DNA from: Aminivibrio sp. | GTDB lineage: Bacteria > Synergistota > Synergistia > Synergistales > Aminobacteriaceae | DNA length: 64,000 nt | Direction of reading: 5' to 3' | Assembly: GCF_016756745.1 (NCBI RefSeq) | Contig: NZ_JAESIH010000059.1 | Span: forward strand, 2,149 to 66,148 | Shown: piece after piece, positions 3,474-52,345 of the stretch | Numbering within the stretch: the first letter of the stretch is position 1 | Layout: the number at the start of each line of letters is the position of its first letter | Translations under genes and position numbers: made by a program | Notes under the pieces: model-generated | Seen by the model: only the letters and a program-made list of their open reading frames with translations | Databases searched by the model: none | What the model was told of the DNA's origin: nothing

Positions 3474-3493
3474 CCTAAATCCGCAGGCAGCGG
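3474..3493 (+). repeat. Solo right-type end of CCTAAATCCGC repeat family
   Basis: CCTAAATCCGCAGGCAGCGG, exact reverse complement of 6836-6855. Confidence 0.85.
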
Positions 3494-3605
3494 AAGAAGT
3501 GCGGCAGAGGAGAGAAAGCGGACGGTTCCTTTTCCCGGCCTCCCATGGAACGCATCACCGGCGTGCCCGGCACAGTGGGATATCCCCAAAAAATCATGAA
3601 AATAC

Positions 3606-3640
3606 AAAAAAGCATCCCTGGAATTCCGGGATGCTTTTTT
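3606..3640 (-). terminator. Intrinsic terminator of TRAP operon
   Basis: AAAAAAGCATCCC...GGGATGCTTTTTT hairpin downstream of dctM. Confidence 0.8.
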
Positions 3641-3660
3641 CTGCCTTGAAAAAATTCGCG

Positions 3661-5013
3661 TTACGCCGCGCCGATCATCATCTCGGGAAGCCAGGTAATG
3701 ATACCCGGGAAGAAAGCGCAGAGCAAAAGCACCACCATGATGATGAGGATGAAGGGAATGACCCCCCGGATGATGTCTCCGATGGTCACGCCGAGCTCCT
3801 TCGGGGCGGTCCCCTTGAGGACGAAGATGGACATGGCCATGGGCGGCGTCTGGAAGGCCATCTGCATGTTGATGCAGATCATCATGCCGGCCCAGAGAGG
3901 ATTGAAGCCGAGAGTGGTCAGGATGGGCGAGAAGATGGGAACCACGATAAACACGATGCCGATCCACTCGATGAACATCCCGAGCAGAAACACGATCGCC
4001 ATGATGACGAAGAAGGACATCCACTTCCCCCCGGGAACGGAGAGAATGAACTCCGCCACCACGTCTCCCGCCCCCGCGTTCATGAAGATGCCCACGTAGG
4101 CGTAGCACATGGCGGCGATCATCACCACGAAAGCGCTGACTTTCATTGTCTCGAGGGAAGCCCGTTTCATGAGATCCCAGCTGAACTTCCTGTAGGCTGC
4201 CGCGAGGAGGATGGACGCGAAGCACCCCACTGCCGCAGCCTCCGTGGGCGGCGCGATCCCGGCGAAAATCGTTCCCAGAACGGCCGCTATCAGCAGGATC
4301 GGCGGAACCAGGGACTTGAGAAGACGGAAAAACTTGGCCGCGTCAAAGGGAGTGATCTGGTCCTCCGGGATAGCCGGGCCGAGAGCGGGGTTCAGGTGAC
4401 AGCGGATGACGACATACAGCATGTAAAAGGCAGAAAGCAGAAGGCCTGGAAAAACGGCTCCCATGAACATCTGCCCCACCGAAAGCCCCGCCTGGGGCGC
4501 GTAGACTACGAGCATGATGCTCGGCGGGATAAGAATGCCGAGGGTTCCCGCCGCGACGATGGACCCTGCTGCCAGGGACTTGTCGTACCCCCTGGTGATC
4601 ATGGGGGCAAGGGCGATGAGAGTCAGGATGGTGACGGACGCCGCGATGACACCCAGGCAGGCGGCGAGGATCGTTCCGAACAGGATGGTCACCACGGCCA
4701 GACCGCCCCGGAGCCTGCCCATGGCTTCGTAGAGGCTCTGGTACAGGTCCTTCGTGACCCCTGAATGCTGCAGGATGACACCCATGAAGGTGAACAGGGG
4801 AACCGCCAGGTAGGGATAGTTCAGCGACAGGTCGTAGAACCTGCTGTACAGTATGTGGAATGTGGTGGTGGGACCGAAAACGGCGAGACCTGTAAAAAAA
4901 GCCACGCTCCCGATGACGAAGGCGATGGGGAACCCCGTCATCACGAGGACGAAGACTCCTCCCAGCATAATGGCGGTGACAGTTTCGGCGCTGAGTTCAA
5001 TCAAGAGTCTCAC
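3661..5013 (-). CDS. dctM: TRAP transporter large permease (DctM family)
   Basis: Multi-TM protein; AVPLFTFMG, GTLGILIPPSI, PTEAAAVG, TPPMA motifs; start may be TTG at 5004. Confidence 0.9.
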   Translation of the reverse strand: MRLLIELSAETVTAIMLGGVFVLVMTGFPIAFVIGSVAFFTGLAVFGPTTTFHILYSRFYDLSLNYPYLAVPLFTFMGVILQHSGVTKDLYQSLYEAMGRLRGGLAVVTILFGTILAACLGVIAASVTILTLIALAPMITRGYDKSLAAGSIVAAGTLGILIPPSIMLVVYAPQAGLSVGQMFMGAVFPGLLLSAFYMLYVVIRCHLNPALGPAIPEDQITPFDAAKFFRLLKSLVPPILLIAAVLGTIFAGIAPPTEAAAVGCFASILLAAAYRKFSWDLMKRASLETMKVSAFVVMIAAMCYAYVGIFMNAGAGDVVAEFILSVPGGKWMSFFVIMAIVFLLGMFIEWIGIVFIVVPIFSPILTTLGFNPLWAGMMICINMQMAFQTPPMAMSIFVLKGTAPKELGVTIGDIIRGVIPFILIIMVVLLLCAFFPGIITWLPEMMIGAA

Positions 5014-5515
5014 CCCTCACCATGAAATAGACATCCCGCACAAAATTCGCCGCCGCCTGAAGGATCAGAAGGAAAAGGCCCACAGCGAACACTGTCCGGT
5101 AGGGCCATGCCGGGGGATACCAAAAGCTGTTGAAGAAGACCTCCTTGATGGTCACCGCTCGGACGGCCCACGTGAAGGCGAGCTTGAACATGACCAGCAT
5201 GAGAGGAAAAAAGAGAAACAGGGAGCAGATCACGTTCATGAAAGCCTTTCCCCGGGGAGGAAGCATGTTGTAGAACATGTCCACCCTCGTGTGCGCCTCG
5301 TGGAGATAGTCGTAGGAGGCGCCCAGAAGGTACAGGGCGCCTCCTGCCATGCACAGTACGTCATAGGCCCATGCGGTGGGAGCGTTGAAGAAATGGCGCG
5401 CGACAGCCTCGTAGGTTCCCGCAAACACAAGGACCAGGGCGAACCACTTCGCCACCCAGCCGGACGTTTCGCTGACGGTATCGATGAATTTCAATATTTT
5501 CCTTAAGGACGACAT
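4997..5515 (-). CDS. dctQ: TRAP transporter small permease (DctQ family)
   Basis: 4 TM segments, HTRVDMFY motif, lies between dctP and dctM. Confidence 0.88.
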   Translation of the reverse strand: MSSLRKILKFIDTVSETSGWVAKWFALVLVFAGTYEAVARHFFNAPTAWAYDVLCMAGGALYLLGASYDYLHEAHTRVDMFYNMLPPRGKAFMNVICSLFLFFPLMLVMFKLAFTWAVRAVTIKEVFFNSFWYPPAWPYRTVFAVGLFLLILQAAANFVRDVYFMVRGETLD

Positions 5516-5550
5516 GCCCCTTCTCCTTGTGAAATACCGCGGGAGCGCGG

Positions 5551-6603
5551 CTATTTCATCGTCTCGTAAGATTCGCCGAAGGCCTTCATGGAGTTGTAGA
5601 TCTCTCCGAAGATCGCCGGTTCACTGGCCACCTTTTCCTCGTAAAATTTAGACGCTTCGGCTGCAAGGGCCGCGTTGACCTCCGCAGGGACCTTCAAAAC
5701 CTGGTTGCCCGCCGCCTTGAACTTTTCAAGGGCGATGATGGATTCATAGACAAGATACTCGTGCTGGGCCTGGGTGAAGCGGTCGATGAATGTCTGTACC
5801 AGGAGCTGCAGGTCCTTCGGCAGGGCGTTCCATGCGTCCTTGTTCACGAAGAATACCTGGGGATCGCTGGGAGCGCGTACGGGAGAAAGATAGACGTATT
5901 TCGCCACTTCGTTGAAGTGCATGTTCCAGTTGGAAGCAAGGGTGGAGTACTCAAAGGCGTCGATGGTACCGCGCTTCATGGCCTCGTAGAGCTCGCCGCC
6001 GGGAAGGATGACCGTGGCCATGCCCATTCTCTTCAGGATCTCTCCGGCGTCGCCCATGCAGCGGGCCTTGATGGTCTTCAGGTCTTCAACAGTCTCGATC
6101 TTCTTCTTGGAGTGGAAGAACACCTCTTCAGGAAGGGGGGAAAGGGCGCCCGGGAAGGTCATCACGTTGTAGCCTTCCATCATCTTGTTCATCAGGTCCG
6201 CGCCGCCGCCGTAGTTGAACCACGTGCGGAGGGCTTCGCCGGCGAGGGCGCCGGGGCGGGAGCTGACCAGACCTGCCGCCGACCATTTGTCGAGGTTGTA
6301 CATGGGGCACGTGTAGCAGAGCTGCAGCACGTTCTCGTGGACAGCGTCGACTTCCTTGTAGGCGGGGACGATGGATCCGCCGACGAAGGGCTTGATCTCC
6401 AGCCTGCCGCCGGAGGCTTCGGTGATGGCCTTGCAGAGCATGTCATGGTAGATCTGGGACGGGTCGGACGCCGGGCCGTGCCCGGAAGATTTCCAGACAA
6501 TCTTCTTCGGGGCGTCGGCGCCCTCGACCACGGCGGGCATAAAAGCCCCGACCACAAGGACGGGAACCAGCAGCGCGAACAACACTCTTCTCATAGCCCA
6601 CAT
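5551..6603 (-). CDS. dctP: TRAP transporter substrate-binding protein (DctP family)
   Basis: Signal peptide; SGGRLEIK, ELYEAMKRGTIDAFEY; GGAGG RBS. Confidence 0.88.
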   Translation of the reverse strand: MWAMRRVLFALLVPVLVVGAFMPAVVEGADAPKKIVWKSSGHGPASDPSQIYHDMLCKAITEASGGRLEIKPFVGGSIVPAYKEVDAVHENVLQLCYTCPMYNLDKWSAAGLVSSRPGALAGEALRTWFNYGGGADLMNKMMEGYNVMTFPGALSPLPEEVFFHSKKKIETVEDLKTIKARCMGDAGEILKRMGMATVILPGGELYEAMKRGTIDAFEYSTLASNWNMHFNEVAKYVYLSPVRAPSDPQVFFVNKDAWNALPKDLQLLVQTFIDRFTQAQHEYLVYESIIALEKFKAAGNQVLKVPAEVNAALAAEASKFYEEKVASEPAIFGEIYNSMKAFGESYETMK

Positions 6604-6835
6604 CTTTGTAACCTCCTTTGTATTTGGTGTTTCCCTACGGCAGGGGAGGAATTTCCCCGGCCCTGAACGACACCTTTTCAGAAGCTACTCGAAAAAGAGG
6701 GAACTGCCCGTCACGTTCCGGAAAAAGCCCGGGCAGACCGCATCGAGGCGATCCATGACATTTTTTCCGGTACAGCGGGACATACCGACGAGAAGAATAC
6801 CACTATTCTGAAGGTATTCGAAAAATTTTTCAAGC

Positions 6836-6855
6836 CCGCTGCCTGCGGATTTAGG
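6836..6855 (-). repeat. Solo right-type end of CCTAAATCCGC repeat family
   Basis: CCGCTGCCTGCGGATTTAGG, inverted copy of 3474-3493. Confidence 0.85.
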
Positions 6856-7041
6856 GGAAAAACGTTCTGTTGCAAAAACCCTTCTTTTTTGCTAGAGTTT
6901 CCATGGGTCTGTTATCGCAATTTTCCATTTTTTAGCAGAGAGGAGGGATGCCGTCCCTGCGAAAGGCCGAGGCACGAAAACAGGAGAAGTGCCCTGCTGA
7001 ACGTATCGTTGCGATACCGTGTGAAAAGGAGGCTGAAAACA

Positions 7042-7875: not shown

Positions 7876-7965
7876 TGCCAAGGCGGGTTCCGGCCCGCCT
7901 TTTCCCTTTCCGCCCGAAGACCGATACCCAAACAGCAATACGAAATAATTACGAAGGAGAAAACC

Positions 7966-8751: not shown

Positions 8752-8829
8752 AAGGGCGGCGATGGAGGAAACGCTTACCGGCCGAAAAACTCCTGCGGAA
8801 ACTTCGGCGTCCTCGTCCGGGCCTAGACC

Positions 8830-9096
8830 TCCATCCGCACCCTCGGCCCGGAGGGCATACGGGAAGTGTGGGAGATGACGGCACTGAACGCCGATTGCCC
8901 GGCGAAAAGGCTCAGCTCCATCTACCCCGGCGTCCGCATCATGGGACCGGAAGCGGCGGCCGGGACCAGGGCAAGCCGCTCTCGCAGTCTCCCGAAACTC
9001 ACCGCCGGGGACGCGGCCCTCTCGGTCCACGCTCACCCGACCCTGTGCGAATGCTTCCGGGACGCCTGCCTGCGCGTTCTGGAGAAGGAGAAATAG
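8830..9096 (+). pseudogene. Relic of dihydrolipoamide dehydrogenase-like C-terminal dimerisation domain
   Basis: GVRIMGPEA...LSVHAHPTLCECFRDA resembles the GVHIxGP..HAHPTLxE motif; no N-terminal domains. Confidence 0.6.
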
Positions 9097-9108
9097 GCGG
9101 CAGGCCTA

Positions 9109-11365: not shown

Positions 11366-11379
11366 CCGTTCTTCCGTTT

Positions 11380-18117: not shown

Positions 18118-18713
18118 AGAGCATGGTCGCCTCCCCGCCCATCCCGGGAGCCTACCTGGCGGGAGGAACGGCCCTTGCCCTGCAGTACGGTCACCGGCTT
18201 TCCGAGGATTTCGACTGGTTTCTGCCCGAAAGCTTCGATCCAGGGAAACTGCCCGCCCTTCTCGAACCCTTCGGGACAGTCTCGGTGGCGGAGACCCATG
18301 CCGGGACCTTCCACGGATGGATCGACGGCATCCGGGTGACATGGCTCCATTACCCCAACCCCCTCCTGGACCCCCTCCAGCAGGTTCCGAACATTCCCGG
18401 ACTTCTGCTCTCCTCACCCCGGGACACGGGGCTCATGAAATGGGCCGCCCTCTCCGACCGGGGTGCCCGGAAGGATTTTCTCGACCTTTACGAACTGGGG
18501 CTTCAGGGAATCACCCTCGAAGAGCTCTTTCTCCTCCTGCCCAGAAAATTCCCCGGCCGGCGCCTCAACCTCTACCACATGATCAAGGGACTGAGCTACT
18601 TTGACGACGCCGAGCACGACCCCTGGCCCGTCATGCTCAGGGACGTGAGCTGGAGCGCCCTCCAGCGGTATTTTCTCTCCTCCCAGACCAGACTGCTCCG
18701 CTCCCTCCCTTGA
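18075..18713 (+). CDS. AbiEii/AbiGii-family nucleotidyltransferase toxin
   Basis: YLAGGTALALQYGHRLSEDFDWF, KWAALSDRGARKDFLDLY; GTG start after GAGGAGG. Confidence 0.82.
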   Translation: MFWDVLDKPRQSLLKSMVASPPIPGAYLAGGTALALQYGHRLSEDFDWFLPESFDPGKLPALLEPFGTVSVAETHAGTFHGWIDGIRVTWLHYPNPLLDPLQQVPNIPGLLLSSPRDTGLMKWAALSDRGARKDFLDLYELGLQGITLEELFLLLPRKFPGRRLNLYHMIKGLSYFDDAEHDPWPVMLRDVSWSALQRYFLSSQTRLLRSLP

Positions 18714-18862
18714 ACATCCCTGTTTCGACAGCAAAGAGTGAAAACTTTTTCCTATTTCCATTCAGAAATGTACACTTGACAATTTACGAACAATATGGTT
18801 AAAAAATAAAAGGTGTATTCTATTCTCGTTCCGCCCTGTCGGGACAGATTCCGGGGGACCGC

Positions 18863-21827: not shown

Positions 21828-21881
21828 CGGGAAAAAATATGCACAACGGCCGGAGATCTGAGCCCCCGGCCGTTGTTTTCG

Positions 21882-22100
21882 TGGAAGCATCGCGGACTGT
21901 TGAAGAATGCCGGCCGACTCTATACGACATTGGCGCTTGTGAACCTTTATCTTGTTCAGGACAAGAACCCCTGTCCCACAAGGCACAAGGGCGTAATGTC
22001 TCAAAAAAGCCCTGAAATTGTGGAAATGTCCCATTTAAAGAGTGTTTTCCCCTCTTTTTCTGTGGATAACTGGAGAAAACGAAGCGTCTAGAGCTGCTGT
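21882..22100 (+). mobile_element. IS5-family transposase 3' remnant
   Basis: WKHRGLLKNAGRLYTTLALVNLYLV resembles the IS5 C-terminal RYRGLxKN...LFALxNL motif; no DDE core remains. Confidence 0.6.
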
Positions 22101-22290
22101 AAAATTTTTTTACTGGAACCTACAAAAGTGAAACATACCCCTTATTTTCAGAGGTTTTCTAAGAAACGCAGCACCCAAGAGGTTGCCGCACGGAAGATCA
22201 CCCCGCTCTTGCGGAAAATCTGACGAAAAAAGGGTTCCGCCATGGGACGCGCCACGAACACCCCGGATCTGAATTTCACTATAAAGGAGA

Positions 22291-23076
22291 ATGACAATGA
22301 ACGTGAACGTGAAGAAAATTGCACAAGAATTGTTTGACGCGGAAAAAGGACGTTTCCAGATTACCATGCCCACCGTATCCTACCCGAGCATGACGGCGGA
22401 AGACGCCTACGCAGTCCAGCTGGAAAATATAGCGAGAAAAGTCTCGGCGGGAGAACACATCATCGGCATGAAAATCGGATTGACCAGCAAGGCCATGCAA
22501 AATCTTCTGCACGTGAACGAACCGGATTATGGTCATTTGACCGATAAAATGCTGCTTTCGGAGGGAGAAAATTGCCCCATCAATGAGTTGATTCAGCCGA
22601 AAGCAGAGGGCGAGCTCGCGTTTTGTCTCAAAAAAGCTTTGAAGGGACCGGCCGTTACGATCGCAGATGTTTATAACGCTACCGGTTGGGTCGTTCCCGC
22701 TATTGAAATAGTGGACAGCCGTATTAAGGACTGGAAAATCACGCTTCTCGATACCATAGCGGACAACGGTTCCAGCGCACGATTTGTGCTGGGCGGCAAA
22801 ATGACGCCCATCGCTCAGGTGGACATGCGCTTGACCGGCATGACTCTTGAAAAAAACGGAGAACTCGTCAACAGCGGCACGTGCGCCGAAGTATGGGGAA
22901 ACCCTGCGGCGGCGGTTGCATGGCTTGCAAATAAACTTTCCGAATTCAACATAGAACTGAAAGAAGGAGACATCGTCATGGCAGGCGCTCTGACTGCGGC
23001 GCAGCCAGTTGTAAGAGGAGACAGCATCACCGTGAGTTTCCACGGCATGGGAAGCGTAACGGTTGCTTTTCAATGA
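22291..23076 (+). CDS. mhpD: 2-keto-4-pentenoate hydratase (FAH superfamily)
   Basis: DAYAVQ, GMKIGLTS, PDYGHL, AEGELAF, IEIVDSR, ADNGSS, GNPAAAVAWLAN; more AT-rich than its flanks. Confidence 0.88.
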   Translation: MTMNVNVKKIAQELFDAEKGRFQITMPTVSYPSMTAEDAYAVQLENIARKVSAGEHIIGMKIGLTSKAMQNLLHVNEPDYGHLTDKMLLSEGENCPINELIQPKAEGELAFCLKKALKGPAVTIADVYNATGWVVPAIEIVDSRIKDWKITLLDTIADNGSSARFVLGGKMTPIAQVDMRLTGMTLEKNGELVNSGTCAEVWGNPAAAVAWLANKLSEFNIELKEGDIVMAGALTAAQPVVRGDSITVSFHGMGSVTVAFQ

Positions 23077-23104
23077 ATATTCCAGGAAGGGGGAAATGCA
23101 TGAT

Positions 23105-23170
23105 ATGAAGAAGATGAATGTGGGCATCATCGGACCCGGCAACATCTGGACCAATCTGATGTATGTATGA
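23105..23170 (+). pseudogene. mhpF: 5' stub of acylating acetaldehyde dehydrogenase (MhpF/DmpF-like)
   Basis: MKKMNVGIIGPGNIWTNLMYV* resembles KVAIIGSGNIGTDLM; GGAAGGGGG RBS; stops 7 bp before the repeat at 23178. Confidence 0.7.
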
Positions 23171-23177
23171 TGTATAA

Positions 23178-23228
23178 CCTAAATCCGCACCCCAGCGGGG
23201 AGCGTCACCGGGGACCGCGGATTTAAGG
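23178..23228. repeat. Mini element of CCTAAATCCGC family (both termini, 51 bp)
   Basis: CCTAAATCCGCACCCCAGCGG...GCGGATTTAAGG. Confidence 0.75.
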
Positions 23229-23286
23229 AGCAAAAACGGCTTCCCGGGTCCGGGAAGCCGCCCGAAGAATCTCACGGGATGGAGCA

Positions 23287-26133
23287 TCAGGAGATGCGCC
23301 CCTCCCTGCTTTTCCATTTCACGGCGTACATCTCCTCGTCCGCCCGGACGAGGAGTTCCCGCGCCGTGGAGCCGTCGTCGGGGAAAATGGCGACGCCCAT
23401 GCTGCCGTGGACGGACAGGAGCCTCCCCCCGGCCGGGAAGGGTTCCGAAAAGGCGTCGTGATGAATTCTCGCAAGAAATGTGTTCACCTCTTCACGGGAA
23501 AAAAATCCGTCCAGGACAAGAACGAATTCGTCTCCTCCGAGACGGGCTGCGGTGTCCTGCTCCCGGATGAGTCCCGTCAGCCTCCGGGCAACGGAGACGA
23601 GCAGGAGATCCCCTGTCTCATGGCCGTAGGTGTCGTTCACTTCCTTGAACTCGTCCAGATCGATGAAGACCACCGCGGCAAGGGACCGCTCCCTCCTGGC
23701 CCTGGCGATGACCATCTCCAGGCGGTCCAGGAGCAGATACCGGTTCGGCAGTCCCGTGAGGGAATCGTGGTAGGCCATGTAGCTCAGCCGCTCCTGCTCA
23801 GTCTTGATGTCTCCTATGTGGGTCAGCACTCCCGCATAATGGGTGACCTTTCCTTCAGAATCCTTCACCGCCGTTACGGTTAGCCACACGGGGTAAGCCT
23901 CGCCGTCCTTCCGGCGGTTCCACACCTCTCCCTGCCAGACCCCGTTGCGCCGCAGGGAATCCCAGAAGCGCTCCGACGTCTCCGAATGGATCCTCTGGGC
24001 GGAAAATATGCCCGGTCTCCTGCCCCGGATCTCATCCAGGGTATAGCCAGTAAGCTCCTCGAGAGCGGAGTTCCCGTCCTCGATGAACCCTTCGGCGTCG
24101 GTGACTACGATCCCCTCGGTGGTGGTTCTGAGGAATTGCTCGGCAAGCTGGAGCCTGTCAATCATGGCCTTCCTGTCGGTAATGTCCTGAAGGGCGACGA
24201 AGACGGCATCCTCGCCGCCGAAGGAGATGGCGCCGGCGGAGAGAAGGGCCCACCGGATCTCACCGTCCGGCTTGCGGAAAGCCGCTTCCCTCCCCTGAAG
24301 ATGTCCCGCGGCGAATACCTCGTCTACGAAACCATAAAAGGCCCCGGGGTTCACCAGAAGGTGAAGATCGGTCAGGAGATTTTTCCCCATCGCCAGGGAA
24401 GCCTTCAGACCGAAAAAATCCTCTCCCCGGGAATTGGTGAAGAGCACCCTTCCCTCCGGCGAAATCACCGCCACGGGAAAAGGAACATCCTTCATCAGGA
24501 AGCGGAACCGGGACTCACTCTCCCGGAGTTCCGCCGTCCTCCGCTCCACTGCCGACTCCAGCGTCTCCCGGGCACGGAAAGCCGCACCGACGAGAACCGT
24601 CACGGACAGGGTTATGGTCAGGCCCGTCACCAGGGCCATCCGGCCGGCGCGGATGGGGTGGTGAAGATAAAAGAAGTCGCCGGGCCGCATTTCCGCCGCG
24701 AAGGTTCTGCCGAAGGCGAAAATGGGGCGGATACTGCACAGGGGATCGCCCAAGGAAACGGTTACCCCGGAAAATTCCTGCGAACCGTCAGTGCCCCCCG
24801 TCCCGGCAATGAAGAGGGGCTTCCCTTCGCCAAGCTGCCAGAGGCCCATGGACATCTCGGCTTCTCCTCCTCTTTGGACCCGGGCCAGCAGAACATCCAG
24901 CCCCAGGGTGACGGCGGCGAAGCCCCGGAGGCGGGACGAGCCGTCCCCGGAGAAGACCGGGCGGTAGACCGTCAACCCCTTGCCTCTTCCGGCGCCTTCA
25001 GGAAGGTTAAATATGTCCGACGCCGAGGGAAGCCTCGTTTCCGCGGCCCGCCTCATGGCCCCGGCTGCGCCGGGTTCCTCTCCCTGCCGCCTGTTCATCC
25101 GGCGGGAGGGAAGAGACGCTCCCGCCGAAGAAAGACCGCTCTCCTCCGGGCCGACGGGAATCCAGGCCGCGGAGATCACCTCCGGAAGCGCCTCCAGGTG
25201 GTCTATAAACCGTTCAAGAGGTTCGACGGACAGATTCCTTTCGGCTTCGACGAACCTCCCCAGGCTCTCCAGGGACATATTCCGGATATTGTCAAAGAGC
25301 ATGTGAAGCCCTCCTGATCGGGCGTCGGCGATTAAGGAGAAGGAGTGCCGGTTGTCCCGGAATTCCTTCTCGTGGGCCAGTCTTGCAAAGGAGAAGGTGA
25401 GCACCAGCCCCGCCGTCAGGGCGAGGACAGCCTCACCGTGGCGGAAGATCCGCCGTCCTTCCCCCTCGGGGAGGGAGCGTCTCCGGAGGAGGAATCCGCC
25501 GCAGAAAAGAATCGCCGCGAGAAGCAGGGCCGTCCCGATGGGCAGCAGGGACGCCCGGAGAACATCCCCCTGCCAATGCCCGGCGTCGATGTCCAGAGCG
25601 AGGACGGCGACGATTTCTCCCGTGGCGGGGTCGGACACGGGGTACCACGTGGAAACCCAGGTCCCCCACCGGTCGGTGATGGGCCCCACGGTGACGGGAC
25701 GTTTCTCTTCGAAGGCCGGAAGAAAACCGGGGTCCATCTCCTCATACACGTCCCCCGGCGGGGACTCGTCCTCGGAACCGGGAAGCTCCGAGTCGACGTA
25801 GAAAAATATGGCGCCGTCGGGACGGCGTCCCACGAGAGTGATGAACTTGCTCCTCGGAAAGGCCCGGAGGGCGGCCCGGAAATGTTCCTTGAACCGCCGG
25901 TACTCCGGAAGGAGAAGGTCATCGCCGGTTCCGGAGAGGGCCCTGACCTGGTCAAGCCGGATGGTCTCGGCCAGGAGACGGGTCTGGCGAAGCAGCTCTT
26001 CCCTCATGAAACGATCCGCGTCCTTCATTCTCCATCGGCCGATGACCGCCCCCCCGGCGAGCACCGCAGCAGCGAGAAGAAACCAGAGAACAGGCAGACG
26101 GACTAAAGCGCCTGCGCGACAAAACCGTTTCAT
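23287..26133 (-). CDS. Membrane sensor diguanylate cyclase (periplasmic sensors, two PAS, GGDEF)
   Basis: AYHDSLTGLPNR, IDLDEFKEVNDTYGH, REQD I-site, RLGGDEF. Confidence 0.88.
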   Translation of the reverse strand: MKRFCRAGALVRLPVLWFLLAAAVLAGGAVIGRWRMKDADRFMREELLRQTRLLAETIRLDQVRALSGTGDDLLLPEYRRFKEHFRAALRAFPRSKFITLVGRRPDGAIFFYVDSELPGSEDESPPGDVYEEMDPGFLPAFEEKRPVTVGPITDRWGTWVSTWYPVSDPATGEIVAVLALDIDAGHWQGDVLRASLLPIGTALLLAAILFCGGFLLRRRSLPEGEGRRIFRHGEAVLALTAGLVLTFSFARLAHEKEFRDNRHSFSLIADARSGGLHMLFDNIRNMSLESLGRFVEAERNLSVEPLERFIDHLEALPEVISAAWIPVGPEESGLSSAGASLPSRRMNRRQGEEPGAAGAMRRAAETRLPSASDIFNLPEGAGRGKGLTVYRPVFSGDGSSRLRGFAAVTLGLDVLLARVQRGGEAEMSMGLWQLGEGKPLFIAGTGGTDGSQEFSGVTVSLGDPLCSIRPIFAFGRTFAAEMRPGDFFYLHHPIRAGRMALVTGLTITLSVTVLVGAAFRARETLESAVERRTAELRESESRFRFLMKDVPFPVAVISPEGRVLFTNSRGEDFFGLKASLAMGKNLLTDLHLLVNPGAFYGFVDEVFAAGHLQGREAAFRKPDGEIRWALLSAGAISFGGEDAVFVALQDITDRKAMIDRLQLAEQFLRTTTEGIVVTDAEGFIEDGNSALEELTGYTLDEIRGRRPGIFSAQRIHSETSERFWDSLRRNGVWQGEVWNRRKDGEAYPVWLTVTAVKDSEGKVTHYAGVLTHIGDIKTEQERLSYMAYHDSLTGLPNRYLLLDRLEMVIARARRERSLAAVVFIDLDEFKEVNDTYGHETGDLLLVSVARRLTGLIREQDTAARLGGDEFVLVLDGFFSREEVNTFLARIHHDAFSEPFPAGGRLLSVHGSMGVAIFPDDGSTARELLVRADEEMYAVKWKSREGRIS

Positions 26134-26296
26134 TCTGACCGGAGCCTTTCTGAATTCACGTCTTCAGCCTCCCTGATTTTGAGAACGACAGGCTTCCAGT
26201 GCTCATTCCCCCTTGCAGGGAATAGCAAAACGGGGCAGAATTTCTACATTTTATTATAAAACAAATACGTGTTTATTCCGAGAGACGACAAAAAAT

Positions 26297-26451
26297 CTAA
26301 ATCCGCTAATTTTTCAGGCAGAGGGAGTGTCACAAGGCACACGGTGAATTCGCCCTCCTCAGGGGAAGGGCGCCCAGGAAAAAAACGACACGGATGTCGG
26401 TTTCACGGGCCAACCGGTGAACGCAGGGAGCCGCTGGGGTGCGGATTTAGG
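26297..26451 (+). mobile_element. Internally deleted MITE-like element (155 bp)
   Basis: CTAAATCCGC...TTTTTCAGGCAGAGGGAGTGTCAC left end, GCGGATTTAGG right end, flanked by AAAAAT direct repeats (26291-26296, 26452-26457). Confidence 0.75.
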
Positions 26452-30156: not shown

Positions 30157-30798
30157 GTGCGATCCATGGACTCCGGAACTCTGAGCGAATTCCACCTCGA
30201 CGTCCTGAAAGAGGTGAGCAACATCGGCGCGGGAAACGCCGCCACTTCCCTTTCCTCCCTTTTGGGCAGAAAGGTGGACATGCGGGTCTCCCGGGTGGTC
30301 CCCATGCCGTTCAACGAGATCGTGGACTATGCGGGCGGCGCTGAGCGGATGATTTTGTCGGTCTTCGTCCGCATCGAGGGAGGCATTTCGGGAAACATGC
30401 TCTTCGTCATGAGCGTCTCCGACGCCCTGGCGCTCATCAGCCACATGACGGGAGCGTCCGGCGGCGAAGGCTTTACGGATATGGGGCTTTCGGTGATCCA
30501 CGAGGTGGGGAACATCACGATCGGGTCCTACATCACGGCCCTTTCCGACTTTCTCGGCTTCGAGCTCATCCCATCGGTGCCGTCCCTGGCCATGGACATG
30601 GCAGGGGCCATTCTTGCCTTCAGCCTTTCCGAGATCGGCCGGAGCGGGGACACCGCCATCGTCATCGACGGCGGTCTTTCCCTGGACGGGAATCCCCTCT
30701 CTGAGGGAGAGTCGAGCCGCATTTTCCTTCTTCCCGACCCCGATTCTTTCGGCCGGATCTTCCAGGCCCTCGGAGTGGCAGGCCATGGCGGTCGTTAG
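30157..30798 (+). CDS. cheC: Chemotaxis phosphatase CheC
   Basis: DVLKEVSNIGAGNAATSLS and HEVGNITIGSY repeats. Confidence 0.9.
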   Translation: MRSMDSGTLSEFHLDVLKEVSNIGAGNAATSLSSLLGRKVDMRVSRVVPMPFNEIVDYAGGAERMILSVFVRIEGGISGNMLFVMSVSDALALISHMTGASGGEGFTDMGLSVIHEVGNITIGSYITALSDFLGFELIPSVPSLAMDMAGAILAFSLSEIGRSGDTAIVIDGGLSLDGNPLSEGESSRIFLLPDPDSFGRIFQALGVAGHGGR

Positions 30799-31273
30799 GG
30801 TCGGTATCGCCGAAGCCGCGGTGGTGATAAACCCCGACTCCATCTCGACCCTCGGGCTTGGTTCCTGTGTGGGGGTGACCCTGTACGACGAAAAAAGGCG
30901 CATCGGGGGCATGGCTCACGTGATGCTCCCCTCCACGGAGCTGGCCAGGGGAACGGACTTCAACAGGTCGAAGTTCGCCGATTCGGCCGTGCCGGACCTC
31001 CTGAAGCAGATGATCCGGTACGGGGCCGACGAGCGGCGTATCAAGGCCAAGCTCGCCGGGGGCGCCCAAATGTTCTCCCTGGGGGGCAATGCCGACTCCC
31101 TCCTCAAGATCGGCACCCGGAACGTGGAAGCCTGCAGAAAGGTTCTCTCCTCCCTCAGGATCCCCATTCTGTCCGAGGACACCGGAGGCTCATGGGGTAG
31201 GACGGTGGAGCTGTTCACCGATTCCGGGATGCTCGAAATACGGGCCATCGGCAGGGAGAAGAAGCTCATCTAG
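30785..31273 (+). CDS. cheD: Chemoreceptor glutamine deamidase CheD
   Basis: TLGLGSCVGV, GMAHVMLP, AKLAGGAQMF, EDTGGSWGR. Confidence 0.92.
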   Translation: MAVVRVGIAEAAVVINPDSISTLGLGSCVGVTLYDEKRRIGGMAHVMLPSTELARGTDFNRSKFADSAVPDLLKQMIRYGADERRIKAKLAGGAQMFSLGGNADSLLKIGTRNVEACRKVLSSLRIPILSEDTGGSWGRTVELFTDSGMLEIRAIGREKKLI

Positions 31274-31330: not shown

Positions 31331-31372
31331 CCTAAATCCGCTCATTTTTCAGGCAGAGGGAGTGTCGCCGGG
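31331..31372 (+). repeat. Solo left-type end of CCTAAATCCGC family
   Basis: CCTAAATCCGCTCATTTTTCAGGCAGAGGGAGTGTCGCCGGG. Confidence 0.85.
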
Positions 31373-31402
31373 CCTGTCGGCGGTGACCGGCGCCCCCGCT
31401 TC

Positions 31403-34703: not shown

Positions 34704-34740
34704 CCTAAATCCGCAGGTTTTTCAGGCAGAGGGAGCGCCG
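34704..34740 (+). repeat. Solo left-type end of CCTAAATCCGC family
   Basis: CCTAAATCCGCAGGTTTTTCAGGCAGAGGGAGCGCCG. Confidence 0.85.
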
Positions 34741-34751
34741 CCTTTTTTTCC

Positions 34752-39596: not shown

Positions 39597-40481
39597 CTAT
39601 TTCAGGCGGGGATTGAACTCGTCGCGGAGAAAATCCCCCAGGAGATTGATTCCGAAGACCAGGAGCATGATGAACATCCCCGGAAAGACCGACGACCACC
39701 AGAGGCCGCTGAAAAGAACGTCGTAGCCGTTTTTGACGAGAAGGCCCAGGGAGGGCCTGGTCACGGGAACGCCCACCCCGAGGTAGCTGAGGGTGGCCTC
39801 CGTGAGAATCACCGTCCCCACGTGGATGGTGGCGATGACGATGAGAGGGGTCAGAATGTTGGGCAGCACGTGCCGCAGGATGACGGCGAAGGGAGAGAGA
39901 CCGATAAGCCTGGCGGCGTCCACGTATTCCTTTTTCTTCTCCACCAGCACGGAGCCCCTGACCGTCCGGGCGTAGAGCACCCAGCCCACGATGGTGAGGG
40001 CCGTCACGAGTTTTCCGAGGCCGCGGCCGAAGGCGGCCATGATGAAGAGGGCCACCAGCATGGCCGGGAAGGAGAGCTGGATGTCCACCACCCGCATGAG
40101 GAGGCTGTCGAGCCTCCCGCCGAAGTAGCCCGCCACGAGCCCGAGGAAGGTGCCGAGAACGCAGGAGAGGACCACCACCGAAAGACCGATGAACAGGGAG
40201 ATCCTGCTGCCGTAGACCATGGCGCTCAGCAGGTCCCGCCCCTGATCGTCCGTACCGAGGAGGAAGGCCGGGTCGCCTCCCTCCATCCAGACCGGCGGCT
40301 TGAAGGCGTCCATGAGGTCCAGGCTGCCGATGTCGTAGGGGTTCTGGGGAGTGAGCAGGGGCCCTGCGGTCACCAGGACCGCGAAGAACGTGACGATGAG
40401 GAGCCCTGCCATTGCGCCGGGGCTCCGGACGAAGTTGTGGAAGAACTCGCTTTTGAAAAATCCTTCTTTTTTTTCGCTCAT
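39597..40481 (-). CDS. Peptide ABC transporter permease (OppC/DppC-like)
   Basis: LGTDDQGRD, EYVDAARLIG, HVLPN; start MSEKKE at 40481. Confidence 0.9.
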   Translation of the reverse strand: MSEKKEGFFKSEFFHNFVRSPGAMAGLLIVTFFAVLVTAGPLLTPQNPYDIGSLDLMDAFKPPVWMEGGDPAFLLGTDDQGRDLLSAMVYGSRISLFIGLSVVVLSCVLGTFLGLVAGYFGGRLDSLLMRVVDIQLSFPAMLVALFIMAAFGRGLGKLVTALTIVGWVLYARTVRGSVLVEKKKEYVDAARLIGLSPFAVILRHVLPNILTPLIVIATIHVGTVILTEATLSYLGVGVPVTRPSLGLLVKNGYDVLFSGLWWSSVFPGMFIMLLVFGINLLGDFLRDEFNPRLK

Positions 40482-40486
40482 TCCGG

Positions 40487-41452
40487 TCACCTCAGGTCGA
40501 TTCTGGGATCGATCAGGGTATAGACGATGTCCACGATGAAATTGATCAGGACGAACATGGCCGCCACGATCATAAGGTAGGCCACGATGACGGGCCGGTC
40601 CGCCGTGTTGATGGAGTCCACCAGGAGCTTGCCCATCCCCGGCCAGGCGAAGATGGTCTCCGTCACGGTAGCGAAGGCGATGAGGCTCCCTATCTGCATG
40701 CCGAAGACCGTCACCACGGGAACGAGGGCGTTCTTCAGCGCGTGGGAGAAGAAGAGGCTCCTCCAGGAGACGCCCTTGGCCCGGGCGAATCGGATGAAGT
40801 CCTGGCGCATCACCTCCATGATCTGGGCCCGGATGAGCCGGATGAGCATGGCCAGCGTTCCGAGGGCGAGGGTCACTGCGGGGAGGACGATGTGCCGGAA
40901 GCCGTCCCAGGTGAGGAAGGCGAAGGGGATGCCGAAGAGGGGAGCCGTGGTCCCCCGGCCCGACGAGGGCAGGAGCCCCTTCTCCACGGCGAAGTAGAAG
41001 ATGAGGAGAATTCCCACCCAGAAGGACGGCAGGGAAATGCCCAGCAGCGACCCTCCCATCACCGCCCGGCTGAAGGGTCTGTTCGGCCTCGCCCCGGCGT
41101 AGACTCCGCAGGGCAATGCTACCGCCAGGGACAGGAGCACCGAGAAGAAGACCAGTTCGAGGGTGGCGGGCATCCGCTCCACGATGAGGGTCAGGGCGGG
41201 ACGCTTGAAGATGTAGGACATCCCCAGGTCCCCCCGGAGAAGGTTCTGCAGGAAGACCCCGTACTGCGCCCACAGGGGCCGGTCGAGGCCGAGGGCGATT
41301 CTGGCCTCGGCTATCTGGGCGTCCGTGGCCGTGGGCGGCACGATCATGAGGACCGGGTCGCCGGTGAAACTCATCACGAGAAAGACGATCAGCGAGACTG
41401 TGAAAAGGACGACAATCATCTGGGCAAGACGTTTCAGCAGGTATTTCAACAT
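40487..41452 (-). CDS. Peptide ABC transporter permease (OppB/DppB-like)
   Basis: LGLDRPLWAQY, DFIRFARAKG, ETIFAWPGMG. Confidence 0.9.
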   Translation of the reverse strand: MLKYLLKRLAQMIVVLFTVSLIVFLVMSFTGDPVLMIVPPTATDAQIAEARIALGLDRPLWAQYGVFLQNLLRGDLGMSYIFKRPALTLIVERMPATLELVFFSVLLSLAVALPCGVYAGARPNRPFSRAVMGGSLLGISLPSFWVGILLIFYFAVEKGLLPSSGRGTTAPLFGIPFAFLTWDGFRHIVLPAVTLALGTLAMLIRLIRAQIMEVMRQDFIRFARAKGVSWRSLFFSHALKNALVPVVTVFGMQIGSLIAFATVTETIFAWPGMGKLLVDSINTADRPVIVAYLMIVAAMFVLINFIVDIVYTLIDPRIDLR

Positions 41453-41492
41453 GGTTCATATCTCCGTTTCGCGTGGAATGGAGAGCCCGGGT

Positions 41493-41770
41493 CCCTCAAA
41501 GCGGCAGGCATGTCGGAAGAGGAAGTGTTGGGGGGCGTACGGTGAATTCGCCCCCCAGGGGCGAAAAGATCCCGCTCCGCGCACTTTGCTGAGACACCTC
41601 CCGGGGGACAGCACCAAGACCGGGAACCGGCCGGGAGTCGGTTTCACAAGCAGACGACCGGCGAACGCAGGGAGCGGGGTTGATCACTTGGAAAATTGTC
41701 ATGGACGACAATGTGCCCCGGCGGCCCGATCGGGCGCCGGCAACGTTCCCCTCTGCCGCCGGATTTTCCG
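41493..41770 (+). repeat. Degenerate near-full-length copy of the MITE-like element
   Basis: Colinear with 52067-52345: GGCGAAAAGATCCCGCTCCGCGCACTTTGC, CGGTTTCACA.GCAG...CCGGCGAACGCAGGGAGC, TGTCATGGA.GACAAT; termini decayed, so boundaries are approximate. Confidence 0.7.
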
Positions 41771-47412: not shown

Positions 47413-47472
47413 AAATCCCGTCTACTTTATGCCACAGTCTCCTTCTTTGCAACACAATCCCGTCCACCTAAA

Positions 47473-47506
47473 CCTAAATCCACAGGCAGCGGGGAGCGGA
47501 TTTAGG
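47473..47506. repeat. Mini element of CCTAAATCCGC family (34 bp)
   Basis: CCTAAATCCACAGGCAGCGGGGAGCGGATTTAGG between divergent genes. Confidence 0.8.
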
Positions 47507-47589
47507 CGGAGCGTCGGGGCTTGTCACCAGCCGGTGAAAATGGGATAATCCTTTGGTGATTGAATCCGATTGTGGAGGATTGTCGAGAG

Positions 47590-48603: not shown

Positions 48604-48904
48604 GTCAAGCACCTCTGTTTTCCTGAAAAACATGATCGACTGGGCCGGGCGGTCTACCGCGACGTCAGGCCGAATCCCACAGACTCCATGGTCATGTGGG
48701 GGCGCCGGGATCTACGAGGACGAAGGCTGCGGACGTCTCCCGGTTCTCCCATAATCCAGAAACGAGTGAACCGGCATCAAGCACAGCCGACTGCGATACT
48801 GTCCCCGAGCGGTTCGGCGGCGGAAGCCTGCATAAGACTGTTAAAGGGAGGGTTTACCCTCGACGACCGACGACGAGCGGTTTTACAACAAAAGATGAAA
48901 AAAT

Positions 48905-48930
48905 TCCGGGGGCCCGTCAGGGCCCCCGGA
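48905..48930. terminator. Intrinsic terminator downstream of the STAS gene
   Basis: TCCGGGGGCCC-GTCA-GGGCCCCCGGA, T-rich tail on the minus strand. Confidence 0.75.
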
Positions 48931-48934
48931 CGCT

Positions 48935-49243
48935 TTACTGTTGGGACACGTTGAACACGAGGTCGAGGCGGGTAAGCCGGAAGAGCTCTTCGACCATTCC
49001 GCGAAGGCCGGTGATGACCATCTTCCCGCCCTTCTGGAGGCATCTCTTGTGAATGGAGATCAGGACCCCGAGCCCCGAGCTGTCCACGTAGTCCAGGCCC
49101 GAAAGGTCGATGGTCAGGTTGATTATCCCTTCTTCAAGAAGCCCGATGAGCTGCTCCCTCACGGACGCGGAATCTTCGACGTACATGCTGCCGCCCAGAC
49201 GTATCCGCGCCCCGGAGCCGCTTTTGCTAATATCCACTTTCAT
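48935..49243 (-). CDS. STAS-domain anti-sigma factor antagonist
   Basis: DLSGLDYVDSSGLGVL, FRLTRL. Confidence 0.88.
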   Translation of the reverse strand: MKVDISKSGSGARIRLGGSMYVEDSASVREQLIGLLEEGIINLTIDLSGLDYVDSSGLGVLISIHKRCLQKGGKMVITGLRGMVEELFRLTRLDLVFNVSQQ

Positions 49244-49288
49244 GGTGCATCCTCCTTCTCCATGGACAAACTTCGGAAAGCAAGCCGA

Positions 49289-51424
49289 TTATACGACGGC
49301 AGGCTTATTTGACAAAACCCCGCCGTCTTTTTCAATCTTGAAGCGCTCCGTCATGCGCCGCATGTCCTCGGAAGTCTCGCTCACTTCCTGGGCGCTCGTG
49401 GCCACGGTCTCCATGGCGGCCGCCGTCTCCTCCATGGAGGCCGCGAGGGTCTGCACATGGTCGTCGGTGAGCTCCATGACGCTGGCGGTGGTGTCGATAA
49501 GGGAGATCACCTTGTCGGACTTGGCCACTTCCTCGTCGGTGGTGGAAATGATCCTCCTTATATCCTCCACGGATCTCCCGATGGCCTTGCCGATCCGCTC
49601 CAGGGCTTCTCCCGCCACGTGGGCGATAGACACTCCTTCCTCAACGCCTTCCCGGCTTTTCTGCATGGACGCCACGGCGGACCTGGTCCCCTCGAGAATC
49701 CTGGCCACGAGTTCCGCCACTTCCCTGGCTCCCTGCTGGGACTGTTCCGCCAGTTTCCGGACTTCCTCGGCCACCACGGCGAATCCTCTTCCGGCCTCCC
49801 CAGCCCGAGCCGCCTCTATGGCGGCGTTGAGGGCGAGAAGGTTGGTCTGGTCGGCGATGCCGGTGATGGTGTCGCCCACCACGCCTATCCGGGCGGAAAA
49901 AGTGTCGAGCTGCGACAGGAGACCCTCCGTCTCCTCCACGGAGGTGCGGATGTTTTCCATGTGCTCCACGGTCTGGGCGACTGTTTCCCGTCCCTCCTCG
50001 GCCGCCCCCGACATCTCGGCGGAGTTTTTGTCGGCGCTTGCCGCAAGGCTCTGGGCAATCTGAATGAGACTGCTCATCTCGAGCATGACCTTGGACGCCT
50101 CAATTGAGTTCTCCCTCCCCCTCCTGGTCTGCTCGGCCAGTTGGGCGTTGCCCTCGGCCACCTCGTTGGTGGTGCTCGTGACCTCTTCGGTGGAGGCCGC
50201 CGTCTCCTCGGAGAGGGCCGACAGGTGGACCGACTTTCCCTTCAACTCCCGGACCATCTCCCGCTGCCCCCGGACCATGTCCGCCAGGGCATCAGCCATG
50301 AGCCCCAGCTCGTCCCTGGTGACGATCTGGAAATCCTCCCGTTCGATGGACAGATCCCCTTCCTTCGCCATCCCGGCGAGGACGGTCACCCTGTTCAGGG
50401 GACGGGTCAGGCTCCGTGTCATGGCGAATGCGATGGCCGCGCCGAGCAGCACCGCTGCGGCGGTGGAAAGAAGAATGACGGAAATGGTGGAAGCGAGGCT
50501 GTCCACGGCGTGGTCGGAGATCTTCTGGGAATTGGCCGCTCCGGCCTGCACAACCTGGTCAGCCATGGCAAGAATGCCCCTCCCCGTCTCGACTCTCCGG
50601 GCGTTGAGTTCTTCGAGGCTTCTCCAGGCCGTCAGGACCCCAGCCATCACGGATCGGTAATCCGCTCCGGCTTTCTCCACGGCCTTTATCTGCTCGATAT
50701 TCACCCTCTGGAACGTCATGGCCTTCAGACGCTCAAGGATCGACTCCATTTCCTCGAAATGCTGGAGCCCCTCTTCGAGGAGCACGGGATTTCTCTGGGC
50801 CTGTCCTCTGTAGTTGGCCAACCGCACAAGGTTTCCCAGATCGATGAGTGCGTTTCCGAGAACAATCTTCTGCAGCCGTCCCGAAAGCTCCGACTGGAGG
50901 GTGCTCTCCCCGAACTCCCTCTCAAGGGTCTGTTCCTGGGAGCGGACGTAGTTCTCCGCATTTTCGAAAAATGCCCTCTCGCTGTCGGTTCCCCTGTTCC
51001 TGAGGGCATTCATGGACTCCACGGCCTTCTCGGTATCGTCCATGAGCTTCACGTACTCGTCGAGCCCTGCCATGGCATCGGCGGCGCCCGCCCTGAGGGT
51101 GACCAGGGCCGGATACTTCTCCGCGAGGGCCGCCGCATCCCCCAGGGCGGCCCGGGCACTTTCCGCGGCACTGCGGCCCGCGTCGAGGAACGAACGGTCG
51201 TAGGTGTAGCTGTAGCCCCGTATTTCGTACATGAGATCCTGTACTGTGCTCTGAATCCTCTCCGCAAGCACCATTTCCGGAACATATTCGTCAGCAAGGG
51301 AACGGACTTCCCGGCTCACCTCCCCCATGTTGAACCAGCTCAGCGCCCCCACTCCGGAAAATATGAGCAGCAGGACGCCGAAGGCCAGAGCGAGCTTCGC
51401 CCCGATCTTTAAATTCCTGAACAT
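49289..51424 (-). CDS. Methyl-accepting chemotaxis protein
   Basis: TM, long periplasmic helical domain, TM, HAMP (DELGLMA), [38 protein letters not shown]. Confidence 0.92.
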
Positions 51425-51544
51425 TCTCTCACACCTCTTTTCTTGAAAATATGTACCGAAAAAACACGCCTTCAGGGCGTTCCCGCGCCCCGGGAACATG
51501 GCGCCCCTGCGGACGGGAAGAAGCCACCGTTTTATTACCCGCGC

Positions 51545-51976
51545 TCACTTCATCTTCATCGTGACCGGATCTCCCGTTCTCACTTCTCCGCCCCGGATCA
51601 CCCGGAGAAAGTACCCCGCCGTGGGCAGAAGGCACCAGCCCCGGTAATCGTAGCTGTGGGGCTCCCCCGGTTTCTTGCCTTTCTCGATGACTTCCAGAAG
51701 CACAGAATCCCCAACCTTGAGGACCGTTCCGACGGGCAACTCTTCGGGGAGCCCTTCCACCACGAGGTTCTCGGCGAGGGATCCCGGTGGAAAGGCAAAA
51801 CCAGCCTCTTCTTCCGCCTTCCGGATATCCTCGGCCCGAAGCAGGCTCACTTCACGCTCCGTTACACCCCTGTGGGAGTCGCCCTTGATTCCTCCCGGAA
51901 GGAACAGGGCCCGCTCCACCTCCGTTTTCGGTTTCCGCCGTTCAGTGCTCAGGCAGACGGCCGTCACTGCCGCCAT
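51545..51976 (-). CDS. MOSC-domain protein
   Basis: GIKGDSH, REVSLL, AENLVV, RVIRGGEVRTGD. Confidence 0.8.
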   Translation of the reverse strand: MAAVTAVCLSTERRKPKTEVERALFLPGGIKGDSHRGVTEREVSLLRAEDIRKAEEEAGFAFPPGSLAENLVVEGLPEELPVGTVLKVGDSVLLEVIEKGKKPGEPHSYDYRGWCLLPTAGYFLRVIRGGEVRTGDPVTMKMK

Positions 51977-52066
51977 GGATCTCACTCCCCACCAATACGT
52001 TATATGATGAAAAAAACAGTTCTATAATACGATAGACGGCAAAAAAAGGCGAGGCCACTCACCTAG

Positions 52067-52345
52067 CCTAAATCCGTAGTTTTTCCTGGCGGAGGGGGTG
52101 TCACCGGGCATGAGGCGGATTCGCCCAGCCGGGGGCGAAGAGATCTCGCTCCGCGCTCTTTGCGGAGGGATTCCATTGGGGGACGGCGCAGGGGCGGTAA
52201 ACCGGCACGGATGCCGGTTTCACAGGCAGGCATCCGGCGAACGCTGGGAGCCGCGATGATCGCCTGGGCAGCTGTCATGGAGACAATCCGCGCCCCCCGC
52301 ACCAAGCGAGCGCCGGCGACGCTCCACGTTGCCTGCGGATTTAGG
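52067..52345 (+). mobile_element. Full-length MITE-like element (279 bp), non-coding, with internal hairpins
   Basis: TIRs CCTAAATCCG / CGGATTTAGG; hairpins 52120-52139, 52149-52167, 52199-52220. Confidence 0.8.

Follow-up and report, generated by a model that had tools for sequence, protein, structure and literature searches.

Miniature inverted-repeat elements related to an IS1380-family insertion sequence in Aminivibrio, and the deletions found at their solo ends

Introduction

Insertion sequences (IS) of the IS1380 family are about 1.5-2 kb long and carry a single open reading frame (ORF). Here we describe a repeat family in a 64,000-nt stretch of DNA from Aminivibrio sp. (phylum Synergistota; RefSeq assembly GCF_016756745.1, contig NZ_JAESIH010000059.1, positions 2,149 to 66,148; hereafter the window), which consists of miniature inverted-repeat transposable elements (MITEs) and shares its termini with an IS of this kind. 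The closest described systems include ISEcp1, with ends CCTAGATTCTACGT and ..AATTTAGG and 5-bp direct repeats (PMC7864471), the related ISPme1, the MaeMITEa-h elements of Microcystis aeruginosa (PMC2779907), the Tn3-derived TIMEs (PMC4133298) and the REP/REPIN repeats. The transposition pathway of the IS1380 family is still unresolved (PMC9330008).

Like ISEcp1 and ISPme1, the putative parental IS of the repeats described here has one DDE transposase ORF (NF033539, PF13701), a length of about 1.9 kb, ends starting with CC and 5-bp repeats. The outer seven bases of its termini, CCTAAAT, are those with which the right inverted repeat (IRR) of ISEcp1 begins when read inward (CCTAAATTCCACGT); over the first 11 bases the two agree at 8 positions (PMC7864471). 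An initial annotation, made from the sequence alone, had given this IRR as ACGTGGAATTTAGG, exactly as it is printed in that paper. Unlike in ISEcp1 and ISPme1, the transposase is about 35% identical to the next-nearest IS1380-type transposases, which are found in other phyla, a non-coding miniature derivative with about 160 copies dominates rather than an IS with captured genes, and no transposable-module structure was found here. The MaeMITEa-h elements and TIMEs are similar in being short, non-coding and hairpin-forming, in falling into several size classes, in sharing terminal repeats with an autonomous element, and in having target duplications and tens to hundreds of mostly intergenic copies. 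They differ in that the parent here is an IS1380-family element, the host is a genus of Synergistota, only 12-16 terminal bases are shared with the parent, and comparison with sister species identifies solo ends as deletion scars. REP/REPIN repeats are also abundant, intergenic and palindromic, and sometimes occur as inverted pairs; however, they consist of 20-40-nt units, lack target duplications and rely on a Y1 (IS200-like) transposase (RAYT), whereas the family described here has 5-bp duplications, defined termini and a DDE-type IS with the same ends.

In a literature search that did not extend to ISfinder, this family turned up nowhere, and we came across no MITE described from Aminivibrio or Synergistota and none assigned to the IS1380 family. 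The initial annotation had rated the repeat its best candidate for an undescribed system; the family is indeed unreported, but the kind of element is well known. Together with its IS it forms a standard MITE-IS pair, an ordinary kind of mobile DNA and not a new kind of system. We are highly confident that the repeats are an IS1380-derived MITE family which expanded in a burst in this lineage, and that their solo ends are scars of deletions.

Results

Occurrence and structure of the repeat

Allowing up to one mismatch, the 11-mer CCTAAATCCGC matches the window 12 times, against 1.05 expected, and none of 100 shuffles reached 12. The matches lie at 3474(+), 6855(-), 23178(+)/23227(-), 26296(+)/26451(-), 31331(+), 34704(+), 47473(+)/47506(-) and 52067(+)/52345(-), and all of the coordinates given in the initial annotation hold. 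In the genome as a whole (2.94 Mb in 100 contigs, 58.6% GC, with the window forming part of contig C56), there are 282 exact occurrences of the 11-mer, compared with 0.9 on average for shuffled 11-mers. The two end types that had been distinguished within the window recur genome-wide, with about 150 left (L) ends (..TTTTTCAGGCAGAGGGAGTGTC) and about 170 right (R) ends (..AGGCAGCGGGGAG or ACCYCAGCGGGGAG); the remaining 24 ends belong to a different, longer element, an IS.

Inverted termini form 159 pairs, 157 of them spanning no more than 400 bp. The paired copies make up 1.0% of the genome and fall into size classes of about 50, 165 (31 copies aligned), 210-225, 255-260 (35 copies) and 280 bp (28 copies), whereas about 57 of 354 termini genome-wide are solo. 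The ends start with CCTAAATCCGCA and form imperfect terminal inverted repeats, in which L and R arms pair over about 33-41 nt. With a size of 50-283 bp, within the limit of about 600 bp for MITEs, and without a transposase gene, the copies are small, non-coding elements. In nhmmer searches, the profile of the 280-bp class recovered 41515-41766 (E=1e-40), so that the decayed copy suspected at about 41493-41770 is real, and profile searches with the long copies found no further copies in the window. All nine window loci lie between crude gene calls, as the initial annotation had said, and 92% of termini genome-wide are outside called genes, which cover 83% of the genome.

Target duplications and empty sites

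An exact 5-bp target duplication surrounds 65 of the 159 pairs (about 0.16 by chance), and each of the other duplication lengths considered (3, 4 and 6-9 bp) is found around 11 pairs at most. Window sites were polarised by synteny with two sister species: contig C32 of G005 and contig C3 of G002 align collinearly along the window from end to end, with identities of about 87-92%. The sites other than deletion junctions and a composite block described below are the following.

23178..23227, no strand: 50-bp mini-MITE with R-type arms, at the right edge of a low-GC islet
26296..26451, plus strand: 156-bp MITE, L to R, with an AAAAA duplication, a lineage-specific insertion (nhmmer E=4e-31)
34704..34742, plus strand: solo L terminus, 39 nt of the L end left
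41500..41766, plus strand: diverged copy of the 280-bp class with unrecognisable terminal 11-mers, an insertion in this lineage
47473..47506, no strand: 34-bp palindromic mini element, with L-end remnants at the orthologous place in G002 and G005

At 26296-26451, G002 has the uninterrupted site ..GACAGAAAAAAAACAATATG.. with AAAAA present once, a precise empty site, and the site of the copy at 41500-41766 is empty in both G002 and G005. Outside the window, the alignment blocks that flank a 165-bp copy at C56:78884 leave 231 nt in C56 versus 67 nt in G002, so this copy appears to be missing from G002. Older sites are also present. At 34704, both sister species have a copy of about 165 bp with decayed ends, and the solo terminus seen here is the truncated remnant of an old, shared insertion. 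Likewise, the L-end remnants in G002 and G005 mark 47473 as an old site. Terminal inverted repeats, a duplication of fixed length, empty orthologous sites and termini common to an autonomous element are thus all found in this family, and the repeat CCTAAATCCGC marks a real MITE family.

The low-GC islet next to the 50-bp mini-MITE (21880-23177, about 1.3-1.35 kb, ~54% GC) holds an ORF of the FAA-hydrolase family at 22291-23076. In its place G005 has 20 nt and G002 has 3.9 kb of unrelated DNA; no homologue of the islet was found in the G002 variable region or elsewhere in this genome. On the minus strand of the window, two long ORFs in different frames overlap (39597-41459 and 40487-41452) upstream of the opp permease domain, which could reflect a frameshift or a miscalled start.

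A cognate IS1380-family element

The initial annotation had proposed a non-autonomous IS1380-like element without a cognate transposase in the window. Both parts agree with our searches, since the same genome holds an IS with CCTAAATCCGCA termini and 5-bp duplications, and tblastn for the transposase in the assembly gave a sole match, on contig C75, and none in the window.

C75:3871-5782: complete IS copy, 1,912 bp, with a 533-aa ORF and the target duplication CGGTC

The encoded protein matches the Pfam model DDE_Tnp_1_4 (PF13701) with 67.8 bits (cut-off 34.7) and the NCBIfam model NF033539 'IS1380 family transposase' with 174.1 bits, slightly below the cut-off of 180. A scan of species genomes found full IS copies with 86-89% amino acid identity in a long-read Aminivibrio metagenome-assembled genome (MAG); these have CCTAAATCCGCA ends and the duplications TCTCT, CTGAC and ACGAA, so a transposase with the same terminal repeats was found both on C75 and in this MAG. 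IS length is between 1,903 and 1,924 bp, and the single ORF encodes 530-537 aa; the transposases of the MAG copies, in L007 and L008, pass the NF033539 cut-off with 180.9 and 186.0 bits. Profile matches, CC-starting ends and 5-bp duplications together make the assignment of the probable parental IS to the IS1380 family well supported.

In this assembly, at least nine left inverted repeat (IRL) ends and eight IRR ends sit 124-127 nt from contig edges. Contig ends that stop 124-127 nt inside the IS are those of C2, C4, C16, C18, C30, C37, C41, C52, C65, C68, C71, C73 and C78. This pattern indicates that an IS with multiple, nearly identical copies interrupts the assembly, from which the interior of these copies is missing.

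The IRL of the IS, CCTAAATCCGCACC.., has its first 14 nt in common with the MITE R end, and the IRR, CCTAAATCCGCAGGTT.., its first 16 nt with the L end. No similarity between the MITE and the IS interior was found past the terminal 12-16 nt, and the MITE is therefore not a simple deletion derivative of the IS. Short derivatives made of IS ends alone also occur, with IRL joined to IRR at C63:48341-48417 (77 bp) and IRR to IRR at C34:40359-40480 (122 bp), and are a second, low-copy way to miniature elements. A subfamily with CCTGAATCCGC at both ends of one copy is found at C26:13027-13610, C79:14667-14715, C34:40359-40480 and C39:39235; IS ends with the same variant were found as well, which suggests a second IS/MITE lineage with co-changed termini.

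Solo ends at deletion junctions

Three solo ends in the window adjoin remnants of genes that are intact in sister species.

3474..3493, plus strand: solo R terminus of 20 nt, CCTAAATCCGCAGGCAGCGG, the left deletion junction beside the TRAP operon
3490..3600, plus strand: relic of an MscS-type channel gene, comprising ~36 frameshifted codons from its 3' end (AEEVRQ..RESG.. tail)
6685..6838, minus strand: relic of a metallo-beta-lactamase (MBL)-fold hydrolase gene, the last 51 codons and the stop (..LEKFFEYLQNSGILLVGMSRCTGKNVMDRL..)
6835..6855, minus strand: solo R terminus of 21 nt, the right deletion junction beside the TRAP operon
31331..31375, plus strand: solo L terminus of 45 nt, followed by ~20 nt of a MatE gene 3' tail

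In the interval between tyrA and dctM the sister species are 5.3-5.7 kb longer than this genome, and homology restarts at about 3487-3493 with the microhomology GCGG. At 6855, where G005 is 6.6 kb longer, the collinear DNA upstream of the cyclase gene begins with the base after the terminus, and the microhomology is AGCGG. The G005 orthologues of both relics are intact (617 aa with PF00924/PF21082 for the MscS-type channel; PF00753 for the MBL-fold hydrolase), and each relic adjoins the inner, truncated side of a 20-21-nt MITE end. Two further genomes, G003 and G008, likewise carry extra DNA at the 3474 and 6855 sites beside dctPQM. At 31331, this genome lacks a 1.35-kb MatE gene that both sister species carry, and the inside of the MITE shares the microhomology CCGGGC with the 3' end of MatE. 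The solo ends at 3474, 6855 and 31331 are junctions of deletions that took place in this lineage, with microhomologies of 4-6 nt. The retained gene tails argue against the extra DNA having been inserted in the sister species. That gene relics end at the repeat termini, as first noticed in the initial annotation, is borne out at these three junctions by the MscS-like, MBL-fold and MatE tails. Retained lengths of solo ends range from 11 to more than 70 nt without a sharp peak in a crude ungapped extension, which points to no favoured truncation point. Comparing the intergenic regions with the genome by tblastx gave mostly noise, but brought to light the EAL and permease fragments described below, and 30614-31273 proved to be an intact CheD gene and not a relic.

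Ten large structural differences (at least 0.5 kb) from G002 were listed in the window. At three of them the deletion junction coincides exactly with a solo MITE end, and at a fourth the 50-bp mini-MITE lies on the edge. MITEs occupy only about 1.6% of the whole window and, counting intergenic DNA alone, about 14%; under the stricter, intergenic null, four of ten at a MITE corresponds to a binomial p of about 0.04 (our own arithmetic).

Several junctions in the window are without a MITE remnant, namely those at 8793-8925, 18713-18762, 48644-48819 and 63241-63498, where the sister species have an additional 7.7, 4.3, 2.2 and 3.3-3.5 kb, respectively. Beyond the window, at C56:81546 (window coordinate 79398), collinearity with G002 stops exactly at a MITE copy, and this may be a further rearrangement breakpoint.

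The arrangement of these ends had also led to the proposal that the repeats mark the boundaries of mobilised cassettes. According to this proposal, inverted termini bracket the TRAP operon (3474-6855) and the GGDEF gene (23178-26451), which would move as composite or one-ended units (transposable modules), in the way that ISEcp1 and ISPme1 carry along genes beside them. Indeed, dctPQM is enclosed by identical inverted 20-21-nt ends and the GGDEF gene by identical ACCCC-variant ends, and surrogate ends are known to allow members of the IS1380 family to move the DNA next to them (PMC9330008). However, both the TRAP operon and the GGDEF gene occupy the same syntenic position in the sister species, where the MITE ends are missing, so neither has been mobilised. 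The TRAP bracket consists of two separate deletions whose junctions retain tails of lost neighbours, and two independent scars do not make a cassette. The GGDEF bracket resolves into the mini element at the edge of the variable low-GC islet and the R end of the separately inserted 156-bp copy, since the end at 26451 belongs to that MITE with its own AAAAA duplication and its empty site in G002. No target duplication surrounds 3474-6855, 23178-26451 or the composite block at 52057-52766, and none of 160 inverted terminus pairs that are 0.4-20 kb apart genome-wide shares a 5-bp flank. A transposable module with a true end, a surrogate end and a 5-bp duplication was thus found neither among the three window brackets nor among the 160 genomic pairs, and we consider mobile cassettes very improbable.

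A patchwork block beside a full-length copy

Where the sister species have 43-46 nt, this genome has a 710-nt block at 52057-52766. The block begins with 10 novel bases, followed by three features.

52067..52345, plus strand: 279-bp full-length MITE copy (280-bp class; nhmmer E=1.5e-68), the left part of the 710-nt block
52353..52622, minus strand: relic of the 5' part of an EAL-domain gene, composed of a 250-nt piece 94.8% identical to C65:13503-13752 and a 29-nt piece matching C65:14054-14082
52615..52769, plus strand: permease fragment, 155 nt, identical to a stretch within the permease gene (58380-58534), 5.7 kb downstream

The two EAL pieces are inverted and show an 8-nt microhomology, GTCCAGGG, across an internal deletion; the relic lies directly beside the 279-bp copy. 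The permease fragment is joined to the EAL relic through a microhomology of about 6 nt, CACTTT, and to the ancestral sequence through CC. Judging from these joins, the block looks like a product of template-switch or end-joining repair. The length of the 155-nt permease duplicate is near the assembler's apparent overlap length of about 126-127 nt.

Spread and relative age

With the long MITE consensus, five of ten Aminivibrio genomes gave matches, as against none of 31 from outside the genus. The 12-mer CCTAAATCCGCA occurs 233 times in this genome, 44 times in G002, 9 times in G005 and at most 3 times in other sampled genomes of the family. The insertions at 34704 and 47473 are common to the sister species; the MITE family therefore predates the split from these two species, and by these counts it has expanded massively in this lineage. 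The size classes differ in divergence: median pairwise identity is 0.95 in the 165-bp class, which includes identical pairs and has perfect duplications around 24 of 35 copies, 0.88 in the 255-bp class (18 of 36) and 0.84 in the 280-bp class (5 of 28). By this measure the 165-bp class is the youngest, the 255-bp class intermediate and the 280-bp class the oldest. Tandem arrays derived from the repeat were seen at C66:40698-40752 (a 27-nt R-end unit, three times) and in G002 at C1:179372-179817 (a 48-nt unit, several repeats).

Hairpins, orientation and neighbouring genes

The hairpin potential of the MITE is strong, and the fold of the 165-bp consensus is an extended hairpin that contains two internal ones (-64 kcal/mol, z=-10.5). 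Such folds could also be expected if the repeats were mainly a structured RNA or REP-like regulatory family, acting as terminator, mRNA stabiliser or small RNA and kept by selection on the hairpins. Divergent intergenic regions, which contain promoters, are over-represented among the sites of copies (55 of 133, or 41%, versus 15% of all intergenic regions), and in tandem intergenic regions the L-to-R orientation along the direction of the genes prevails 34:16; these biases could result from target choice or from selection. Against this explanation, the RNAalifold consensus of 64 long copies keeps 17 pairs, of which three have two-sided changes, and one of these three is just the two termini co-changing (the CCTGAATCC subfamily), so that covariation is weak. 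A match to a described RNA family, which the initial annotation had named as grounds for abandoning its proposal, did not turn up: Rfam gave no window match at gathering scores and nothing relevant for the full copy at E up to 1, and a tRNA scan found none. The target duplications, together with the empty sites and the cognate IS, account for how the repeats spread, and a mainly regulatory RNA family is accordingly most unlikely, although secondary effects of copies on expression are possible.

The genes that flank the window copies are ordinary ones, namely tyrA, dctPQM, a cyclase-family gene and the genes for a PAS-GGDEF protein and phosphoesterases, cheD, the aconitase gene and proC, as well as genes for an M20 peptidase, the opp permease, MurB, FabH, a methyl-accepting chemotaxis protein and an amidohydrolase. 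The initial annotation had stressed copies next to genes of cyclic di-GMP (c-di-GMP) signalling, and one could suppose that the element is functionally linked or targeted to such genes and is behind their acquisition and loss. Two window copies do flank the GGDEF gene and one adjoins the EAL relic; on C65, MITE copies are likewise found upstream of the intact EAL paralogue. Genome-wide, however, a copy is present in the flanking intergenic region of 4 of 16 GGDEF/EAL genes, compared with 14.6% for genes overall, an enrichment that is not significant (odds ratio 2.0; p=0.19 in Fisher's test), and the other window copies adjoin unrelated housekeeping genes. A special link to c-di-GMP genes thus has hardly any claim to being real, and we regard it as the least probable of the explanations considered.

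Discussion

The spread of the repeats and their solo ends can be accommodated in one model. The DDE transposase of the ~1.9-kb IS1380-family IS would recognise the shared 12-16 terminal bases and move the MITEs in trans, inserting them mostly into intergenic DNA with a 5-bp target duplication. After insertion, deletions would start inside a MITE, extend into neighbouring DNA and be sealed at microhomologies of 4-6 nt, taking out 1.35-6.6 kb and leaving the tails of neighbouring genes. The trigger may be a break at the lost MITE end, made by a transposase cut, or slippage or cleavage at the MITE hairpin. The repeat family, its target duplications and empty sites, the cognate IS, the deletions and their microhomologies are observed; mobilisation in trans by this transposase and the trigger of the deletions are inferred.

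Several observations weigh against an IS1380-derived family whose solo ends are deletion scars. The MITE and the IS have just 12-16 terminal bases in common. A perfect duplication surrounds only 41% of the pairs, and 7 of 40 among the short forms (up to 150 bp). The sole complete IS copy of this genome, on C75, has mutated ends (CCTAAATCCAC and CCCAAATCCGC) and a score under the NCBIfam cut-off; for this reason, and because the interior of the multi-copy IS is missing from the assembly, we infer an active transposase in this very strain rather than observe one. Finally, seven of the ten large differences from G002 are without a MITE end, and MITEs are therefore not the sole deletion endpoints.

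A bolder extension of the model is that the MITE burst is streamlining the genome, with MITE ends serving as preferred starting points of microhomology-mediated deletions and of template-switch patchworks like that at 52057-52766. The breaks would then come from abortive transposase cuts or from hairpin cleavage. We put this forward tentatively, as a possibility that is rather doubtful at present.

The most useful parts of the system are the species-specific burst and the clean, polarised deletion scars. For annotation, the family should be masked, and neither its hairpins nor the gene stubs alongside them should be taken as new RNAs or genes. Shared insertions, lineage-specific insertions and deletion scars provide dated markers for population genomics of Aminivibrio. 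For the IS1380 family, the pair gives a transposase together with a probable minimal substrate of 12-16-nt ends. In this genome, the MITE family accounts for about 1% of the sequence and copies of the parental IS for at least 16 contig ends. If the streamlining extension is true, a non-autonomous IS1380 derivative would be a main driver of recent gene loss in this lineage.

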